Below, piece after piece: positions 1 to 64,000 of a DNA stretch of 64,000 bases. Made by a program: the position numbers and the translations under genes. Numbering within the stretch: position 1 is the first letter of the stretch; the number at the start of each line of letters is the position of its first letter. The notes under the pieces are model-generated. The model was not told the DNA's origin and made no database searches. It saw only the letters and a list, made by a program, of their open reading frames with translations. The DNA comes from Candidatus Aenigmatarchaeota archaeon (GTDB lineage Archaea > Aenigmatarchaeota > Aenigmatarchaeia > QMZP01 > QMZT01). Location of the stretch: assembly GCA_963726265.1 (NCBI GenBank), contig CAVSBQ010000002.1, positions 896,001 through 960,000 of the forward strand. Reading direction: 5' to 3'.

Positions 1-248
1 TCGCTTAAAGTTTCTACAGCCTGCAAAGCTGTCAAATATCGGGTCTGAGAAAAGCCAGCATTGAGGACTTTTTTCAATTTTACCCTTTCTGCTTTAGTGA
101 AAAAAGGCAGCGCTTCTATTAGCATATTACCATGGGTCTCAATCTGGTTTGGTACACTGCCTTTTCGCAATTCTTGCAATTCAGTCAGGTAAATGCCCAA
201 AATACCATACCTGAGCTCTTTAAGTTTTTCAGGGTTGTATTTTCCCAT
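1..248 (-). CDS. hypothetical protein, partial (runs off window start)
   Basis: Manual translation: ATG at 248 gives MGKYNPEKLKELRYGILGIY..., open to position 1; not in ORF track. Confidence 0.6.
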   Translation of the reverse strand, partial: MGKYNPEKLKELRYGILGIYLTELQELRKGSVPNQIETHGNMLIEALPFFTKAERVKLKKVLNAGFSQTRYLTALQAVETLS

Positions 249-346
249 AATAGACTCTCTGGATGCTTAAATTTAAAAGGCTTCTGGATCAGCAGAATCA
301 GACTCTAAAAATAAAGATTTAAAGTATTGCCCCAATAGAAATTAAT

Positions 347-1492
347 ATGGACGAGTTTGTCGTTCTGCTGATAATCGCGGTAGTGATAATAGGCGCTTTC
401 ATGGTCATCGGTACGCCTTTAGCCAACTGGGCCGAGGGCAACTGGACCACGGGCGGCGCAACAGGGAATTACAAGTCCCTTGCCACCTTCGACTTGGGCA
501 GGGTCGGCCTGTCCGACACCGAGGTCTCGAGGACGCTTAATTTCGGCTCGTTCACCCTTGGCCAGGACCAGGAGCAGTCGCTCAAGGAGATGACCACGCT
601 CAGCGTCTCGCAAGGCTATTTCGGCAGCGATTCGAAGAAGTTCGACATCGCTATCGACGAGAACATCCTCAACAACCTCAAGGACGTTAAAATATCGTTT
701 GACATGGGAGAGACGAACCTGTACGGCAACCTCATTTTCAAGTGGAATGACAAGGTCGTTTTCGACAAGCTGGCGAACCTCAACCACTATGACATCATAA
801 TCGAGCCAGGCGACGTCGAGGCCGATAACACGCTCGTCATCGCCGCGGCGACGCCAGGCATGTATTTCTGGGCCGCAACCACATACAGCATGAAGGATTT
901 CAAGGTCGTCGCGGAATACGGGCCCGAGAAGTTCGCCTCGTTCAAGGTCTACCCGAACGAAATCGAGGGATGGAACAAGGGCGTCCTGAGCTTCCACACC
1001 AACAATGCGCAGGCTGCGCAGCTGAGCATAAAACTCAACGGCCAGCAGATATACAGCGCGACCAGCCCCGGTTCTCAGGTCACCAAGGAGTTCCAGTATT
1101 CGGAAATCGGGAACGCCATACGCATCGGCGACAACGTCATCTCGTTCAAGTCCACGGGTTCGCTGGCGCTCAGCGACGTGCAATTCGTAATCAGTCTCGC
1201 AGCCGGCTCGGCAATCAAGGAGAGAGGCTTCAACGTTTCAAGCGCCGACAAGGGCCTGCTGGCCGGGAAAGGCAAGGGCAAAATCGAGTTCACGGTCGAC
1301 AGCGTCGACCGCCAGGGCGTCCTTATCATAAAGCTCAACAGCAACCAGCTCAACATACAGTCCGTGCGTGCAGGAGTGAACACGGTTGACTTCGCATCCA
1401 GCGACGTTTTCGAGGGCGCGAACACCGTGACCTTCAGCAGCGGCACGGGCAGCTGGGACATCAACGGCGTCAAGGTGGGTATCGCATACTAG
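347..1492 (+). CDS. membrane-anchored beta-rich surface protein (hypothetical)
   Basis: 381-aa ORF with host codon usage, N-terminal TM helix and repeated beta-sandwich-like segments. Confidence 0.75.
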   Translation: MDEFVVLLIIAVVIIGAFMVIGTPLANWAEGNWTTGGATGNYKSLATFDLGRVGLSDTEVSRTLNFGSFTLGQDQEQSLKEMTTLSVSQGYFGSDSKKFDIAIDENILNNLKDVKISFDMGETNLYGNLIFKWNDKVVFDKLANLNHYDIIIEPGDVEADNTLVIAAATPGMYFWAATTYSMKDFKVVAEYGPEKFASFKVYPNEIEGWNKGVLSFHTNNAQAAQLSIKLNGQQIYSATSPGSQVTKEFQYSEIGNAIRIGDNVISFKSTGSLALSDVQFVISLAAGSAIKERGFNVSSADKGLLAGKGKGKIEFTVDSVDRQGVLIIKLNSNQLNIQSVRAGVNTVDFASSDVFEGANTVTFSSGTGSWDINGVKVGIAY

Positions 1493-5144: not shown

Positions 5145-5816
5145 ATGTCTATGAAGGCGAAGAGGACGAAGAGGCTGAAGGCCAGGCCGCATAAGGCGAG
5201 GAAGACGAAGAAAACGAAAGACGCAGCCGGGAAGATAAGGATACTCTGCGTCTCCGACTACCATCGCGACAAGGGAATGGCGGATAACGTCGAGAAACTG
5301 GCCAGGAAGGAGAAGGTAGACGTCATAGTCAATGCGGGCGACTTCCTGTCCGAGGAGTTCGCGGCGAAGACGCTTGGAGCGACGCAGTTCCGCACGTTCG
5401 TCGTGCGCGGCAACTGGGACCGCGATCTCAGCGTGTCGAACAGGAAGGTCACGGTCCTGCTCAACGAGATTGCCGAGTACAACGGTTATTTTTTCCTGGG
5501 GGTCGACTGGAACTATTACGCGCAGATACCGAAGCTAGCGAAGGGCATCGACCCGAAAAGGCTCATATTAATAACGCACGACCCGCCCTTCGACATCCTC
5601 GACATAAGCTACTTCGGCAGCAACGCCGGCATGCCGGAGCTCAGGGAAGTGGTCGAGGCGATAAAACCCGTTCTCCACGTCTTCGGCCACATACACGAGT
5701 CCGCCGGCGTGGTCAAGCACAGGGGCACGCTGTTCATCAATGCCGCCCTGCCGGAATACAGGAAAGCCGCGATAGTCGAGCTGCCCAGCCAGAAGGTTGC
5801 CGTTTTCGACGTTTAG
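5145..5816 (+). CDS. calcineurin-like metallophosphoesterase
   Basis: SDYH, GD, GNWD, HDPP, GHIHE motifs. Confidence 0.88.
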   Translation: MSMKAKRTKRLKARPHKARKTKKTKDAAGKIRILCVSDYHRDKGMADNVEKLARKEKVDVIVNAGDFLSEEFAAKTLGATQFRTFVVRGNWDRDLSVSNRKVTVLLNEIAEYNGYFFLGVDWNYYAQIPKLAKGIDPKRLILITHDPPFDILDISYFGSNAGMPELREVVEAIKPVLHVFGHIHESAGVVKHRGTLFINAALPEYRKAAIVELPSQKVAVFDV

Positions 5817-7285: not shown

Positions 7286-9121
7286 ATGGTGATGAAAAGC
7301 ATAAGGCACATAACCAGCTCGAATTCCAGGACGCTCGTGCCAGACACGTCCGTTCTCATAAACAGGAAGCTCTCGGAGATGATAGAAGGCGGAAAACTCG
7401 ACGGCGTGAGGATAATCATACCCAGGATAGTCGTCGACGAGCTGCAGGCGCAGGCGTCACGGGGGAAGGACGTCGGCTTCCGCGGCCTGGACGAGATAAA
7501 GAAGATTAAGGCGCTTTGCGAGAAGCACAAGATAAAGCTCACCTTCAGCGGAGAGCGGCCTTCGCAGGACGACATAAGCCTGGCGAAAAAAGGAAGGCTG
7601 GACGCGCTAATCCGCGACTTCGCGGTGAAGGAGAACGCGACCCTTCTGACCAGCGACTACGTGCAGGCGCTGGTGGGCGAGGCTGAAAATGTTTCGATTG
7701 ACTACGTCCCGTTCGACATAAGCCACAAGGCGATAAAAATCGAGGGCTTCTTCACCCCGGACACGCAGTCCGTCCATCTCAAGGTCGGAGTGAAGCCTTA
7801 CGCGAAACGGGGGAAGCCGGGCGAGGTGAAGCTCGTCCACATCAGGGACAAGCTGGTCGATGAGGACGAGCTGAAGGCGATAATCTACGAGATACTTTCG
7901 AAGGTCCACAAGGACCCGGGCTCGTTCATCGAAATCGGGAAGCAGGGCGCCAGCGCTCTGGTCGTGCAGATGGGCAAATACAGGATAGCGATAACGAGGC
8001 CGCCTTTCTCGTCCGCGACCGAAGTCACGGCAGTCAGGCCCATCGTCAAGCTCGAGCTGAAGGACTACGCCCTTCACAAGGATGTGGAGGAAATGATAGT
8101 CGGCGACACGCGCGGCGTGCTCATAGCAGGCCCGCCCGGTTCGGGGAAATCGACCTTCGCAGGCAGCGTCGCCGAGTTCCTTTCGCACATGGGCAAGGTC
8201 GTCAAGACGTTCGAGCAGCCGAGGGATCTGCAGGTCGGCCCGGAAATAACGCAGTATGCGCCGCTCGAGAACGACTGGGAGAAAACCGCTGAAATGCTTC
8301 TTCTGGTCAGGCCGGATTACACGATTTTCGACGAGGTGAGAAAGACCAAGGATTTCCGCGTCTTCGCGGACATGCGTCTCGCCGGCGTTGGAATGATAGG
8401 CGTCGTCCACGCGACTGACGTAATCTCAGCGATACAGAGGTTCATGGGACGCATCGAATTGGGCATGATTCCCCACGTCGTCGACACTGTCATCTACATA
8501 AAGAACGGCAAAATACAGAGGATTTACACGCTCAGCCTGCTGGTGAAAGTCCCGTCAGGCATGACCGAAGCTGACCTGGCGAGGCCGGTCGTCGAGGTGC
8601 GCGACTTCGAGACGAAGAAGCTCGAATACGAGATTTACACCTTCGGCGAGGAGAACGTCGTCATCCCGATAAAGGAGGCGCCCAAGCCGCTGGTGGACAT
8701 GATCACGAAGGTCATAGGCAGGGAGATAGGCCACCTCGACAAGAACCTGCAGATAGAGTTCCTGTCGGAAAACAGGATCGTTCTGCGGGTAAGGAATGAC
8801 GTCATAGCCAAGATCATAGGAAGGCAGGGCAAGAACATCGAGGACCTCGAGAGGAAGACGGGCATACGCATCTCCGTCGAGCCCAGCGAAAACACGTTAA
8901 AACAGGAAGTCGCGTTCGAGATAGGCGAGCGCGGCAAGGCCTTCGGCATCATGGTCGGCGACAGGCTAACCGGCCAGCAGATCGATTTGTATGACGGGGA
9001 AGAGTATTTGTTTTCGCCAGTGGTCGGAAGAAAAGGAGAAGTCAGGGTAAGGAAGAAATCCGACGAAGGCCGCAAGATTCTGAGGGCGGTAAGCTCGAGA
9101 ACGCTGAGAGTGCTGGCCTAG
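7286..9121 (+). CDS. PIN-domain ATPase with KH domain (PINA family)
   Basis: N-terminal PIN (VPDTS), Walker A GPPGSGKST, C-terminal KH (IIGRQGKNI). Confidence 0.9.
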   Translation: MVMKSIRHITSSNSRTLVPDTSVLINRKLSEMIEGGKLDGVRIIIPRIVVDELQAQASRGKDVGFRGLDEIKKIKALCEKHKIKLTFSGERPSQDDISLAKKGRLDALIRDFAVKENATLLTSDYVQALVGEAENVSIDYVPFDISHKAIKIEGFFTPDTQSVHLKVGVKPYAKRGKPGEVKLVHIRDKLVDEDELKAIIYEILSKVHKDPGSFIEIGKQGASALVVQMGKYRIAITRPPFSSATEVTAVRPIVKLELKDYALHKDVEEMIVGDTRGVLIAGPPGSGKSTFAGSVAEFLSHMGKVVKTFEQPRDLQVGPEITQYAPLENDWEKTAEMLLLVRPDYTIFDEVRKTKDFRVFADMRLAGVGMIGVVHATDVISAIQRFMGRIELGMIPHVVDTVIYIKNGKIQRIYTLSLLVKVPSGMTEADLARPVVEVRDFETKKLEYEIYTFGEENVVIPIKEAPKPLVDMITKVIGREIGHLDKNLQIEFLSENRIVLRVRNDVIAKIIGRQGKNIEDLERKTGIRISVEPSENTLKQEVAFEIGERGKAFGIMVGDRLTGQQIDLYDGEEYLFSPVVGRKGEVRVRKKSDEGRKILRAVSSRTLRVLA

Positions 9122-28803: not shown

Positions 28804-30007
28804 ATGAAAAAAATAATTCCTGCCGAGAGGGCGGGCAAGGTCACTTACGCGATTCGCGACGTCGTGGTCGAGGCGAACAAGCTCAAGGCACAGGGGCATG
28901 AAGGTCCTGAACCTCAACATCGGCGATCCCAACGTCTACGACTTCGTTACCCCGCGGCACATAATAGAGGCCGTGGAGAAGGCGATGGAAAAGAATCTCA
29001 ATGGTTATGCGGATTCGGCAGGCGTCGAGGAGGCGAGGGAGGCGGTCGTGAAAGAAGCCGCCAGGGACGGCATCAAAGGCGTGACAAAAAGCGACGTGCT
29101 GATAACCACAGGCGTCAGCGAGGGCATAGAGCTCGCGCTGAACGCCCTGCTCAACCCGGGAGAAAACGTCCTCACGCCCACGCCAGGCTATCCTGTTTAC
29201 ACGGCAGTCGTGCACAAGATAGGCGCGGCGCTGAACCAGTACAAAACGGACGAGGCGAATGGCTGGCAGCCGGACATAGACGATATTCGGAAGAAAATCA
29301 ATTCGAAAACGAAAGGCATAATCCTCATAAATCCGAACAACCCGACAGGCTCCCTTTATTCCAAGAAGACGCTGCAGGAGATAGTCGACATCGCCCGCGA
29401 ACACAACCTGCTCATATTCTCCGACGAGATATACAACAAGATTTTATTCGACGGCGAGAAGCACGTCTCGACCGCTTCACTGGCGAATGACATTCCGATT
29501 CTCACCTTCAACGGCCTCTCGAAGAACTACATCGTTCCGGGGTGGCGCGTGGGATGGATGATATTCAGCGGGCCAAGCGAGCTGCGCGCGGAATTCCAGG
29601 AGACGGTCTTCCGCCTCGCGAGGGCGAGGCTCTGTTCGCCGGGGCCTTTTCAGTATGCCGTAAAGCCGGCGCTCGAAGGGCCGCAGGACCACATACCCGA
29701 GATGAACAGGAAGCTGCAGAAGCGCCGCGACCTCATCCACAAGCGCTTCAACGAAATCGAGGGTTTCTCATGCGCGAAGCCGAAGGGCGCATTCTACGCC
29801 TTCCCGAAAATCGAGCTCGACATAAAGGACGACAAGAAGTTCATCATGGACGTCCTATACAAAAAACAGATTCTCGCCGTCTTCGGCACGGGCTTCGGCT
29901 GGGAAAAGCCGGACCATTTCAGGATCGTCTTCCTCCCGCCGCTCGAAGTCCTCGACGAATCGCTCAACAAGCTGGAAGAATACGTGAAGGAGAATTACAA
30001 GAAGTAA
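28804..30007 (+). CDS. class I/II PLP aminotransferase (AlaT-like), 1-nt indel near 28895
   Basis: TYAIRD N-terminus, LNIGDP, NPNNPTG, DEIY, SKNY..PGWRVG. Confidence 0.92.
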
Positions 30008-30177
30008 AACGTTCTTTGGTAACTACCTAGCAATGCAAAATTTCTGATATTAACAGCTTTACATTAGACATTAAACCGTTTTGTATTTGAAGTGGTTCAA
30101 TCTATTGATTTTTTGTAAAATTCAAATGAATACGAATTTTACATTTTTAAATATAATAGTTCAAATTTAATTCAATA

Positions 30178-31494
30178 ATGACTTCAGAAATAGCAATATT
30201 AAACAGTGAAGGAGTTGCTCTAGCAAGTGATAGTGCAGTTACTATAAATCAAGGTATAAAAATATATAATTCAGCAAACAAATTGTTTTGCCTATCAAAA
30301 TTCAAACCAGTAGGGATAATGATTTATGGAAATGCTAGTTTCATGAAAACTCCATTTGAAACTATTATTAAGGTTTTTCGAGAAAAATTATCTGATAAAT
30401 CATACCCAAAATTAGAAGATTATGCAGATGAGTTCATAAAATTTTTAAATAAAAATGAAATTGGAATTAGTAATAGTCAACAAACGAGTTATCGTGACTT
30501 CTTTATTCGCAACATTTTTAATGAAATAAAAAATAACATAGTGGAATCTTGCGATGATTTAATAAAAAAGAAAGGAAAAATTACTAAAAAAGAAATAAAT
30601 AAAATTTCCCTTTTAATCATAAATCAATTTAAAGAAAATTTTAGTGAAAATAAAAAATTAGAATGTTATTCTGATAAATTTTTATTAAAATTTAAAAAAT
30701 CTGTCAAATCCATTATTAATAAATCTATTAAAAATATTTTTCAAAATTTGCCACTTTCAAAAAAAGAAATTAACTATTTGGAAGAAATTATAATTTCTAT
30801 ATTCACAAAAGACAATTTTCCACCATGGGAATCAGGCATTGTAATTGCCGGTTTTGGTGAAAAAGAAATATTCCCATCACTCGTTTCATATGAAATTGAA
30901 GCTTTAATTAATAATGAATTAAAATTTAAAAAGGGTTTGCGTAGAGATAAAATAGGTTTTACAAAAAAAGCTTCGATAATTCCTTTTGCTCAGTCAGAAA
31001 TGGTTCATACTTTTATGCAGGGTGTAGATCCAAATTATAAGGAAACAACTCTATCATATTTGGAAAATGTATTTTCAAAATATCCGGATATTTTAATAGA
31101 TAATTTAAAGGACTTTTCACACCTAACAAAAAGAGATAAAAAAAATATTAAACGAAAATTAAAGAAAATAAGTTTGGATATGTTTAAAGAATATGATAAA
31201 AAAATGTCTAATTTTTCAAGGAAAAATCATATAGATAAGGTTCTTGATGTTGTTGCTGTTTTACCTAAGGATGAATTGGCTGCCATGGCAGAATCTCTTG
31301 TCAATTTAACTTCTTTCAAAAGAAGAGTCAGTATGTCTCAAGAGACAGTTGGAGGTCCAATTGATGTTGCAGTTATCTCAAAGGGAGATGGATTTATTTG
31401 GATTAAGAGAAAACATTACTTCAAACCAGAATTAAATCATCACTTTTTTAAAAACTATTTTAAAATTATGGAGGTGAATAATGAAAAAGAATGA
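30178..31494 (+). CDS. proteasome-beta-like Ntn-hydrolase with large helical insertion
   Basis: After Met removal: Thr1, Asp17 (ALASDS), Lys34 (ANKLF), GIVIAGF, C-terminal TVGGPIDVAVI; extremely AT-rich. Confidence 0.7.
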   Translation: MTSEIAILNSEGVALASDSAVTINQGIKIYNSANKLFCLSKFKPVGIMIYGNASFMKTPFETIIKVFREKLSDKSYPKLEDYADEFIKFLNKNEIGISNSQQTSYRDFFIRNIFNEIKNNIVESCDDLIKKKGKITKKEINKISLLIINQFKENFSENKKLECYSDKFLLKFKKSVKSIINKSIKNIFQNLPLSKKEINYLEEIIISIFTKDNFPPWESGIVIAGFGEKEIFPSLVSYEIEALINNELKFKKGLRRDKIGFTKKASIIPFAQSEMVHTFMQGVDPNYKETTLSYLENVFSKYPDILIDNLKDFSHLTKRDKKNIKRKLKKISLDMFKEYDKKMSNFSRKNHIDKVLDVVAVLPKDELAAMAESLVNLTSFKRRVSMSQETVGGPIDVAVISKGDGFIWIKRKHYFKPELNHHFFKNYFKIMEVNNEKE

Positions 31495-31648
31495 GGTAAA
31501 TGAATTCAGATCAATTTGTGATTTGAAAAAAAGATTTTTTCCCAATGACAAAACATGTAAAAAAACAACAAATAATATTACTGATTTGGGCATAGAACTT
31601 TCACAAAAATCTCTAGATAAAATAAAAATTAAAATTTCGAACATATAA
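31481..31648 (+). CDS. small hypothetical protein (55 aa), overlapping the Ntn hydrolase gene
   Basis: Manual translation MKKNEVNEFRSICDLKKRFFPNDKTCKKTTNNITDLGIELSQKSLDKIKIKISNI; GGAGGTGA SD at 31470-31477. Confidence 0.7.
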   Translation: MKKNEVNEFRSICDLKKRFFPNDKTCKKTTNNITDLGIELSQKSLDKIKIKISNI

Positions 31649-31790
31649 TTAAAAAATTAATTGAAATCGTCTGCTAATCATGTAGTATCTTGCGTAGTTC
31701 TATTTTAATAAAAACAAAAAACAGTAAGCGGCAAAAAACAAACCGCTCACTTTTTGGAAATTATTTGCTAGCTGCTGATATTGCTGGTGT

Positions 31791-32243
31791 TTACCTGATT
31801 AACAGCTTCGCCTGCTCTGCGTTGTATTTCCAGTCTTTGGGCAATAAGCCTTTCCTGATGTAATACTTCGCGAGGCGGCGGAGCTTCGACTCGGCGAGCT
31901 CCATCCCCCTGTAAGACTGGTAGTCCTTCTTGTTCTTGTCGAGATGGCTGCGGAGATAGACTACGTTCCTCATCACGTTTATCAGGTCCTCCGGAAGCTT
32001 GGCGTAGACCTTGTTCTCCCTGAGGATTTCGCTTAACGTCTTCTTGGTCACGACCTTGACCGAGGGTATGCCGTACTCGTCCCTGAGCAGCAGGCCTATC
32101 TGCGCGCTCTGCATGCCCTGCTTCGCGTATTTTATGACAAGGTCCTCGACTTCTTTCGGCTTGTAGTCGACCCACTTCGCGACCTTGTGCAGCGGCTTAT
32201 GCGAGCCCGACTTGCCTCTCCTGCCCGAATACATTCTTGCGAT
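31791..32243 (-). CDS. rps15: 30S ribosomal protein S15 (possible ATC start)
   Basis: ARMYSGRRGKSGS, LRDEYGIPSV, ESKLRRLAKYY. Confidence 0.95.
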   Translation of the reverse strand: MARMYSGRRGKSGSHKPLHKVAKWVDYKPKEVEDLVIKYAKQGMQSAQIGLLLRDEYGIPSVKVVTKKTLSEILRENKVYAKLPEDLINVMRNVVYLRSHLDKNKKDYQSYRGMELAESKLRRLAKYYIRKGLLPKDWKYNAEQAKLLIR

Positions 32244-42207: not shown

Positions 42208-42327
42208 TGGTCCCGCTGGGACTTGAACCCAGGACCTCTCGATATCAGAACCTGCGGTTCCGATACCTCCCTTACGGAGGCTTCGCCTTATCAGTCGAGC
42301 GCTCTAGCCAAGCTGAGCTACGGGACC
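42208..42327 (-). tRNA. tRNA-Ile(GAT) with 45-nt intron (42244-42288) at 37/38
   Basis: GGTCCCG acceptor stem, CTCGA/TCGAG anticodon stem, anticodon at 42290-42292, TTCAAGT T-loop. Confidence 0.93.
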
Positions 42328-44951: not shown

Positions 44952-45686
44952 TCACATTCTGGAAATTTTTCCAGCCTTTGCCAAAACCGCCTCTGCCTTG
45001 ATTTTTTCAGCTTGCCTGCGAGTAAAAGCAGCATGCAGATTTTGTTCTTTTCTAACCACCAACATCTCAGATTCATAGTTTATATAACGCAATACAGGCG
45101 TCTCGCCGTCCAGACGCAGACAAAAAAGATCAGGCCCGTCATGATGAAATGAAATTTCAACTGTCTTTTTGTAAGCTAATATTTTGGCGTAGTCACCAAA
45201 AGGAAAGATATCTTCAAACATCATTTCAAAAAGATTTTTATCCAGTTTTGGCAGTTTGAAGGCCATTCGTATAACGCATTCTTTGAATTTTCCCACGTTC
45301 CTGATTTCCATTCCATCCGGATAAAATTCCAGGCCCAGTTCCATGGGATTTTTATTGTAACCAAGTCTTTTACCTACCGATTTGCAGGATAAATCGACAT
45401 AACGCGTGTTATTATAAGAATCGACATAATCACCGCATCTGCCATAAGGAACAAATTTATCGCAACCACCCTCCGGATATGAGCATGGCTCAGGTTTAAA
45501 ATCCTTTTCCGACAGGCCTGTAATTAAAAATTTATTAATTTCTGTTTCCCCGAAAATCCGGGGAGGAGAATAAAAATCGCCGTCACCGATTCCGAATGCA
45601 GAATTAGGTTTTACCCCCAAAATTCTCAAGGCATACGTTTGAGCAAATTTCGCAGGTAAAAATGTTTCTATTGCCCTATTTGTCAT
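44952..45686 (-). CDS. AT-rich hypothetical protein
   Basis: 244-aa ORF with atypical composition. Confidence 0.65.
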   Translation of the reverse strand: MTNRAIETFLPAKFAQTYALRILGVKPNSAFGIGDGDFYSPPRIFGETEINKFLITGLSEKDFKPEPCSYPEGGCDKFVPYGRCGDYVDSYNNTRYVDLSCKSVGKRLGYNKNPMELGLEFYPDGMEIRNVGKFKECVIRMAFKLPKLDKNLFEMMFEDIFPFGDYAKILAYKKTVEISFHHDGPDLFCLRLDGETPVLRYINYESEMLVVRKEQNLHAAFTRRQAEKIKAEAVLAKAGKISRM

Positions 45687-45837: not shown

Positions 45838-46185
45838 TTATTTTTTTTGATATTTTCTTATGATGATGGATTCGGGATATCTAATGTCACCAATGAAGCC
45901 GCTAATTGACAGAACATCCCCTTCCCTGACATTCTGGATGCCACTGCGCCTGCGTAAAAGAGGGTTATAGCTGAAAACAACACCTCTTTTTTCATCTTCT
46001 AATAAGAGACATTCTGTGCTATATTCTACCCTCTTTACTTTCAGTTTATCAATCTGATACCAATGATCTCGGGTATTTTTTAGAGATTTTATTATTCCTG
46101 GTGCATTATCAATAGCGTCACCAAGAGAATCGAAAATGTAGAATGTTTTCCTCCACCAACCCTTGCCAGTTGTTGTCGTTTGCAT
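45838..46185 (-). CDS. AT-rich hypothetical protein (possible OB-like fold)
   Basis: 115-aa ORF; VREGDVLSISG segment. Confidence 0.6.
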   Translation of the reverse strand: MQTTTTGKGWWRKTFYIFDSLGDAIDNAPGIIKSLKNTRDHWYQIDKLKVKRVEYSTECLLLEDEKRGVVFSYNPLLRRRSGIQNVREGDVLSISGFIGDIRYPESIIIRKYQKK

Positions 46186-63877: not shown

Positions 63878-64000
63878 AGCCCCGTAGTCTAGTGGCCAAG
63901 GATACCAGGCTTTGGGTTCGCAAAGTCCAAAACTTTGAGCAGGCCTTGCCTGCCATGAAAGAAGAAACCTGGCGACGGCGGTTCAAATCCGCCCGGGGCT
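63878..64000 (+). tRNA. tRNA-Gln(TTG) with 51-nt intron (63916-63966) at 37/38
   Basis: AGCCCCG/CGGGGCT acceptor stem, CCAGG/CCTGG anticodon stem, anticodon at 63912-63914, CTTT:GAAG BHB-type helix. Confidence 0.92.

Follow-up and report, generated by a model that had tools for sequence, protein, structure and literature searches.

The repertoire of proteasome homologs was considerably enlarged in 2021 by Fuchs, Alva and Lupas (Bioinformatics, PMC8665760), who described 22 new homologs, among which some families bear the name PMI, standing for 'Proteasome homolog with Multiple Insertions'. The present analysis deals with a two-gene cassette encoding a hydrolase of this group, located in an AT-rich island of a contig from Candidatus Aenigmatarchaeota archaeon; the whole stretch of DNA analysed, 64 kb in length, is referred to as the window. 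The large gene of the cassette encodes a threonine (Thr) hydrolase of 438 amino acids (aa) and is followed by an overlapping open reading frame (ORF) of 55 aa, whose product belongs to a conserved family of micro-proteins. The chances that the pair is a horizontally acquired, self-contained conflict module, in which the PMI-type hydrolase is coupled to this micro-protein, are judged to be about even.

According to PMC8665760, PMI-3 and PMI-4 are named together for an insertion after helices H1/H2 and another one between H3 and H4; insertions between H3 and H4 are present in PMI-2 to PMI-6, and a propeptide is absent from all the new families. PMI-4, whose representative is HDY66466.1, is the most abundant (501 nr90 sequences) and has the widest spread in Table 1 of that paper, phages included, and PMI-3 comprises 28 sequences. 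From their own models the authors infer that insertions at these sites hinder the assembly of rings and double rings, and the paper reports that no genomic context or co-occurrence suggestive of a function was found; the terms 'small protein' and 'operon' have 0 occurrences in the text searched, which does not mention a downstream partner. Connectase, the one monomer among the proteasome homologs for which a specific substrate is known, reacts at the Asp-Pro bond of a short KDPGA motif, which adopts a beta-strand form within the cleft (PMC7980362); it is described as devoid of H1/H2 and as having a signature two-helix insertion between strands S3 and S4 (PMC8665760).

Literature searches returned no later functional work on PMI-4, and a 2026 review cites the catalogue in its reference list alone. 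A different term of comparison is represented by type II toxin-antitoxin modules and single-effector abortive-infection modules, which consist of an overlapping gene pair with one member much smaller and faster evolving; these modules are sporadic and AT-rich, and reside on prophages, satellites and defence islands or alone between core genes.

Fold and active site of the large protein

The 438-aa protein starts with MTSEIAILNSEGVALASDS and contains the strings ANKLF, GIVIAGF and TVGGPIDVAVI; this ORF, its peptides and the overlapping 55-aa ORF are present as described in an original prediction made from the letters of the DNA alone. An AlphaFold2 model was built on profile A1, an alignment of 30 family members that was also the basis of the profile search, and reached a mean predicted local distance difference test score (pLDDT) of 84.2 and a predicted template modelling score (pTM) of 0.77. 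With this model Foldseek returned 43 PDB matches at E≤0.001, and all those listed are 20S proteasome beta subunits or Anbu, with a probability of 1.00 and a template modelling (TM) score of about 0.5 per target. Superposition with VIA-align gave a Z of 16.7 and a root-mean-square deviation (rmsd) of 3.9 Å over 189 of 211 residues for a catalytic 20S beta subunit, and a Z of 16.4 with an rmsd of 3.0 Å over 183 of 212 residues for yeast beta5; in the superposition, residue 2 of the model falls on residue 1 of the beta-subunit chain. The predicted structure supports the assignment of the 438-aa protein to the proteasome-type Ntn (N-terminal nucleophile) sandwich, with alpha-beta-beta-alpha layers, which had been proposed from the sequence, and the superpositions with Z of 16-17 on catalytic 20S beta subunits are in line with it. 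The doubled size with respect to proteasome beta subunits, which had been attributed to long helical insertions, is accounted for in the model by two such insertions, totalling roughly 200 residues.

The conservation of the active site was followed in 80 cellular and 80 viral loci together with the window and, with 7 partial rows left out, in 154 full-length relatives. In every one of the 154 the start codon is directly followed by Thr, and the residues D18 and K35 are retained; G51, the equivalent of Gly47, is kept in 137. The expected triad of the Thr1-Asp17-Lys33 type is thus found as T2/D18/K35, and the enzyme is devoid of a propeptide, as anticipated, because Thr stands directly after the start codon in all these relatives. 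Initiator methionine (Met) is removed by methionine aminopeptidase, and this step should expose the Thr nucleophile of the enzyme.

The enzyme belongs to a very large and almost entirely unnamed family. A homology search recovered at least 7877 protein clusters (90% identity) at E≤0.001 among 8000 candidates scored, and the 120 matches listed are 391-452 aa long, have no precomputed Pfam domain and are nearly all unnamed or annotated as "hypothetical". No match to the enzyme was obtained in Pfam (cut at E≤0.01, PF00227 included), NCBIfam or PADLOC, in a direct sequence search against PDB chains, or in BFVD at E≤0.001. PHROGs gave a match over the full length to phrog_5990 (E 7.6e-128), a group of unknown function, and the ESM Atlas returned unnamed clusters and one PF00227 cluster, at rank 23. 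The enzyme family is already catalogued as a PMI type and is not an unknown kind: the original prediction was right in separating the protein from the canonical proteasome, HslV, Anbu and connectase, and is to be corrected in that homologs with these two insertion sites had been listed in 2021 as PMI-3/PMI-4 (PMC8665760). By description (size and spread), the family is most likely PMI-4 rather than PMI-3.

Disrupted copies of the enzyme gene occur in 5 of the 80 cellular loci (L011, L028, L037, L069 and L080). Three of these carry in-frame stops, one is frameshifted and one is truncated at the N-terminus; next to the last of them a partner ORF is still recognisable.

The small protein and its co-inheritance with the enzyme

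The partner was surveyed in the 80 cellular loci, which come from other species and of which 75 have an intact large gene by ORF scan. Most of them show a same-strand ORF of 42-110 aa starting from -58 to +24 nucleotides (nt) relative to the stop codon of the large gene. Starting from the 55-aa protein of the window, jackhmmer found homologous called ORFs in 55 of the 80 loci, and a hidden Markov model (HMM) run over stop-to-stop translations raised the loci with a partner homolog directly downstream to 66; several of the remaining 14 hold a recognisable, degenerate partner motif. The ORF of the window is more than a chance frame, because 66 of the 80 loci have a protein-level homolog at the corresponding position, and judging from these sequences it is a real, dedicated partner of the enzyme, as had been proposed. 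In an independent profile search of 1.84 billion representative proteins, 1231 clusters of the partner family were recovered at E≤1e-3 and 85 at E≤1e-10, with representatives nearly all of 48-90 aa.

The family motif is approximately [FY]-[RH]-S-x-x-E-[FY]-x-K-x-[FY]-F-P-x-S, to which the F.S..D.KK.FFP string pointed out in the window corresponds. After the motif there is a variable linker, often containing D-P-x-x-[FL]-G, and then L-A-x-E-S-L in a long helix; the partner of the window is without the D-P pair. Two positions, Pro21 and Gly37, are nearly invariant (at least 90% of 44 partner sequences); the former is at the start of the linker, after two aromatic or hydrophobic residues, and the latter is at the start of the second helix. 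The partner model (pLDDT 80) consists of helices 12-19 and 33-53 connected by an extended linker. No match to the partner was found in Pfam, NCBIfam, PHROGs or PADLOC, and the ESM Atlas gave no usable hit.

The pairwise identities of enzyme and partner are correlated (r=0.67 over 51 pairs), and none of 500 permutations reached so high a value; mean identity is 21% for the partner and 42% for the enzyme, the former evolving about twice as fast. This correlated divergence shows that the two genes are co-inherited as a unit and does not demonstrate binding. The unit is limited to two members: when 593 neighbouring ORFs were clustered, no third conserved gene was found within 4 kb, the largest cluster spanning 3 loci.

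Two relatives recovered with the partner family are unusual. P0143 (113 aa) carries an N-terminal four-cysteine zinc ribbon, and P0136, a repeat protein of 1600 aa, has seven matches to the first partner motif (FNSVSEWIAQ[IV]FPKTKKEI); as a true partner relative P0136 was discarded, being most likely a chance match inflated by its repeats.

The prophage relatives, with enzymes 30-42% identical, share the position of the small ORF, which is taken by an ORF of 40-95 aa in 75 of their 77 loci; one prophage subgroup carries a similar E-L-R-E-W-Q-K-K-F-N-P-S string. A positional control on the antisense strand of the cellular loci was not discriminating (same-strand 73/76 versus antisense 58/76).

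Mobility, genomic contexts and architecture of the cassette

The cassette is foreign to its host and mobile, as supported by base composition and distribution. When the guanine-cytosine (GC) content of the window was computed in 64 one-kb bins, the lowest value (0.242) was that of 30001-31000, which agrees with the description of the block as the most AT-rich of the window; the next-lowest bins are 0.325 (31001-32000) and then 0.370, against a background that is mostly 0.50-0.60, about 0.55. At a resolution of 100 nt the GC content is 0.52 at 29900-29999, 0.11-0.38 within the island and 0.54 by 31800-31899; the drop begins just past the stop of the aminotransferase gene (30007) and ends at the convergent stop of the ribosomal protein S15 gene (31791). 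Among 41 related genomes the enzyme gene is present in one, that of the window itself, and in two genomes of the same genus the gap between the aminotransferase and S15 genes measures 40-50 base pairs (bp). Taken with the low GC content, these data bear out the suggested horizontal acquisition. The pattern is general: in 75 of 75 loci the enzyme gene is poorer in GC than the locus around it. The family occurs in more than 329 species genomes. Two other genomes of the genus have a radical-SAM-like gene of about 295 aa in the same gap (L116:2107-2985 and L119:1984-2883), which seems to be a recurrent insertion spot because it is occupied either by the cassette or by this gene.

In viruses the enzyme was found in 13 of 50,697 phage records, including Streptococcus satellites, and 118 IMG/VR contigs encode a relative. 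In the Streptococcus satellites no large gene comes after that of the enzyme, and a 55-aa ORF follows it; in a Stenotrophomonas phage the enzyme gene stands between the lysis and the tail genes, on the strand opposite to theirs. Of 17 prophage loci, 8 have the enzyme within two genes of an endolysin, a holin or a Q-like antiterminator, 4 within two genes of a cI-like repressor or an integrase, and 5 elsewhere. Positions beside lysis, antiterminator or repressor genes are classic moron positions.

The four nearest genes were examined in 37 loci (148 proteins), and PADLOC hits at E≤1e-10 were obtained in 16 of them, a count without a matched control; in 9 of the 16 the hits are clear restriction-modification genes. 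The immediate neighbours in 45 loci include GmrSD, methylases, Uma2, HicB and transposases of the IS200 and rve types, mixed with housekeeping genes. In a contig of ANME-1 (L009:4432-8928) the cassette lies between cdhC and cdhD, two genes for CO-dehydrogenase/acetyl-CoA-synthase, inside a core operon.

The features of the cassette and of the large protein are collected in Table 1. From the position of the Shine-Dalgarno-like GGAGGTGA and the overlap of the two genes, it is inferred that translation of the 55-aa ORF is probably coupled to that of the large gene. The TATA-like TTTAAATA is, by inference only, a candidate leaderless archaeal promoter. In the cassette region a sigma-70 scan gave 13 sites against 11.1 expected from shuffles, a number not above the shuffles, and a scan for terminator-like sites found none.

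Table 1. Features of the two-gene cassette in the window and elements of the predicted structure of the large protein
Feature	Position	Strand	Remarks
AT-rich 5' flank of inserted cassette	30008..30177	+	GC 0.17-0.31
ATTAACAGCTT, left copy of 11-nt direct repeat	30049..30059	+	edge of GC drop
TATA-like TTTAAATA	30146-30153	+	about 28 nt upstream of large-gene ATG
Large gene, 438 aa	30178..31494	+	Thr Ntn hydrolase resembling proteasome subunits, of a PMI type (most likely PMI-4)
Shine-Dalgarno-like GGAGGTGA	31470..31477	+	within 3' end of large gene, 3 nt before small-ORF ATG (31481)
Small gene, 55 aa	31481..31648	+	conserved partner protein; overlaps final 14 nt of large gene
AT-rich 3' flank of cassette	31649..31790	+	extends to S15 stop codon
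Ribosomal protein S15 gene	31791-32234	-	convergent to cassette
ATTAACAGCTT, right copy of 11-nt direct repeat	31798..31808	+	within last codons of S15 gene (other strand)
Core strands of enzyme model	residues 4-50, 219-271, 389-412		
Helices H1/H2	residues 60-91		
First insertion	residues about 92-215		four-helix block after H1/H2 (helices 99-210)
H3	residues 273-281		
Second insertion	residues about 285-360		long helical hairpin between H3 and H4
H4	residues 364-379		
Low-confidence tail of enzyme model	residues 417-438		

The two copies of ATTAACAGCTT are spaced 1749 (repeat family D3); by a rough estimate of our own, an exact 11-mer repeat would turn up by chance within 2 kb with approximately the odds of a coin flip, and the repeat is therefore a lead only. 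Over all the loci, flanking direct repeats of at least 12 nt are found in 13%, versus 0.6% in inter-locus controls; most of the long ones recur elsewhere within their own locus and resemble genome repeats, and a clear flanking duplication occurs in a single locus (L020), where direct repeats of 282 bp with 92% identity (5208-5489 and 7357-7632) stand on either side of the cassette, the repeated segment being the 5' end, here duplicated, of a DNA methyltransferase gene. The repeats flanking the cassette in the window and in this locus hint at a possible insertion via recombination with a duplicated target.

No RNA data set was listed for the cassette, and small shares of it are contained in two metagenome runs only. 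Elsewhere in the window, other low-GC patches (bins 0.37 and 0.39) hold ORFs of 207, 244 and 115 aa (1967-2590, 44952-45686 and 45838-46185), which may be further acquired genes. Two transfer RNA (tRNA) matches, at 42208-42327 (-) and 63878-64000 (+), the latter running off the window end, extend for about 120 nt each against a 71-position model, a length that suggests intron-containing archaeal tRNA genes.

Proposed function and comparison with known systems

The interpretation that is preferred here, given just short of an even chance, is that the pair acts in conflicts in the way of a toxin-antitoxin or abortive-infection module, with the micro-protein gating the protease. It starts from the fold, the catalytic residues, the conserved partner, the co-inheritance, the mobility and the genomic contexts established above. 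In the proposed mechanism, the product of the first gene would have its Thr1/Asp17/Lys33-type centre exposed by loss of the initiator Met alone, and the two helical insertions would prevent proteasome-like rings; the second gene, translationally coupled, would supply a fast-evolving helical protein of 55-65 aa belonging to the first. The extended, conserved aromatic-aromatic-Pro segment of the micro-protein would occupy the substrate cleft like a pseudosubstrate, serving as a gate; once this gate is lost, displaced or cleaved (e.g., upon phage infection or cassette loss), the freed protease could cut cellular or phage proteins. The cassette would travel as cargo of temperate phages, phage satellites and defence islands, and would also stand alone between housekeeping genes. 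In its widest form, the PMI-4 type, the largest of the orphan proteasome-homolog families, would make up with its partner a proteolytic conflict system of two components, widely distributed among bacteria, archaea, temperate phages and satellites, with a pseudosubstrate-checked protease released on infection or cassette loss; this is put forward tentatively, with the balance tilting somewhat against it. A bolder variant, by analogy, would be a connectase-like transfer of the micro-protein onto targets.

Several observations weigh against the conflict module. Binding, proteolysis, toxicity and defence by the cassette are predictions, and the fold itself rests on a predicted model because the links to the proteasome obtained from sequence only are marginal. 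In particular, the search with profile A1 gave a marginal match to the Thermoplasma proteasome beta subunit (E 0.022) in two colinear stretches, one at the N-terminus from Thr1 and the other aligning TvGGPiDVaviskGDgf on asGGmIDVAVItrkDGyv; hhalign against 30 archaeal PsmB sequences from the phylum of the host was also weak (E 0.012, probability 3.5%), with a colinear alignment over residues 2-412 that sets T2 on Thr1, D18 on Glu17, K35 on Lys33 and G51 on Gly47. Against the 5027 models of PADLOC 2.0.0 the best E of the enzyme was 0.45, with no system match; 21 of the 37 loci have no PADLOC hit among the neighbours, and many immediate neighbours are ordinary housekeeping genes, including those for proline, thiamine, tRNA-synthetase and CO-dehydrogenase. 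Iterative HMM searches found the small ORFs of prophages homologous to the partner of the window in 1 of 77 loci. No fusion of enzyme and partner, nor a longer protein with a partner domain, was found, which is weak evidence.

The housekeeping neighbours are what would be expected of an ordinary protease outside any conflict, whose small protein acts as an assembly, stabilising or specificity subunit and whose patchiness reflects the frequent transfer of a useful accessory gene; the same explanation is favoured by a strong purifying selection, enzymes from different phyla having a mean identity of about 42%, and by the scarcity of disrupted copies, only 5 of 80 cellular loci. It is nevertheless unlikely, in view of the occurrence of the gene in 1 of 41 close relatives, of a GC content always under that of the host locus, of its carriage at prophage moron sites and satellite ends, and of the lack of a conserved metabolic neighbour. 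Phage carriage could in turn mean that the module serves the phage or satellite (in counter-defence, or in the control of lysogeny or lysis), the chromosomal copies being remnants; the location within two genes of lysis, Q-like antiterminator or cI-like repressor genes in 12 of 17 prophage loci fits this idea, as does the full-length match to PHROG 5990 (E 7.6e-128). The numbers make it quite improbable, 13 of 50,697 phage records and 118 IMG/VR contigs being few beside the species genomes (more than 329) and the protein clusters (at least 7877) of the family, and the copy in the window and many others are without phage genes nearby.

The remaining explanations concern the nature of the small ORF. 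That it is the dedicated substrate or tag of the enzyme, cut or transferred in a connectase-like way at a conserved X-Pro bond for maturation or conjugation, is suggested by the Asp-Pro bond of the strand-forming KDPGA motif at which connectase acts (PMC7980362), by a Pro that follows two aromatic or hydrophobic residues and is retained by at least 90% of the 44 partner sequences, by the frequent D-P-x-x-[FL]-G segment and by a model that sets the first motif at the start of the extended inter-helix linker. This explanation, the main rival of the gate, is rather unlikely: the likeness to connectase is limited to that short motif, the partner of the window is without the D-P pair, the enzyme keeps H1/H2 and is without the connectase-defining S3/S4 insertion, and the neighbourhoods suggest no target or pathway. 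Highly improbable, lastly, is that the small ORF is no gene at all and stays open in the 3' region by chance; the lack of Pfam, NCBIfam, PHROGs and PADLOC matches and of a usable ESM Atlas hit would agree with it, together with the abundance of antisense small ORFs in the same place (58 of 76 cellular loci), and it is countered by protein homology with a conserved motif in 66 of 80 loci of many phyla, by the 1231 representative clusters in an independent protein library, by the co-divergence with the enzyme and by a start codon that lies within the large gene, downstream of a Shine-Dalgarno-like site.

Neither the micro-protein partner nor the cargo-like distribution of the two genes seems to have been reported before. 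The conserved partner, often missed by gene callers, is the first usable functional clue for a PMI-type enzyme family lacking a tested function, and makes this function directly testable. Should the protease-based conflict module be confirmed, the family would receive its first function, and modules of this kind a new effector chemistry; if instead the enzyme ligates like connectase, a possible new tool for protein engineering could be derived from it.

In comparison with toxin-antitoxin modules, the architecture and the contexts of the cassette fit, and a difference lies in the small protein, which is devoid of a DNA-binding fold. Toxins of the Ntn or proteasome type were not described in the literature searched. 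The enzyme shares with 20S beta subunits, HslV and Anbu the same Ntn fold, with the catalytic residues in register. In contrast to these, it is about twice as long and is not matched by PF00227, a search for which retrieved from the host genome two canonical proteasome genes only; moreover, it has no propeptide and is mobile and patchy instead of vertically inherited. No alpha subunit, HslU or Anbu-operon gene is recurrent near the enzyme in the 80 loci, nor in a Pfam scan of 90 immediate neighbours.

With connectase the system has in common a dedicated protein partner with a short motif and a Pro at the reactive bond, and an N-terminal nucleophile exposed without a propeptide. Unlike connectase, the enzyme keeps H1/H2 (60-91) in the predicted model, in which the strands 27-50 are contiguous with no S3/S4 insertion; furthermore, the partner of connectase, MtrA, is a large enzyme encoded elsewhere and not a 55-aa co-transcribed protein. 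The closest resemblance is to the PMI types as characterised in the catalogue: the model of the enzyme has both insertion sites of PMI-3/PMI-4, after H1/H2 and between H3 and H4, and the family shares with PMI-4 the proteasome-like core, the Thr1/Asp17/Lys33-type centre, the absence of a propeptide, the lack of any known function, and a very large membership across many bacterial phyla, Euryarchaeota and phages. What distinguishes it from the account given of PMI-4 there is the conserved small protein found here downstream of the enzyme.

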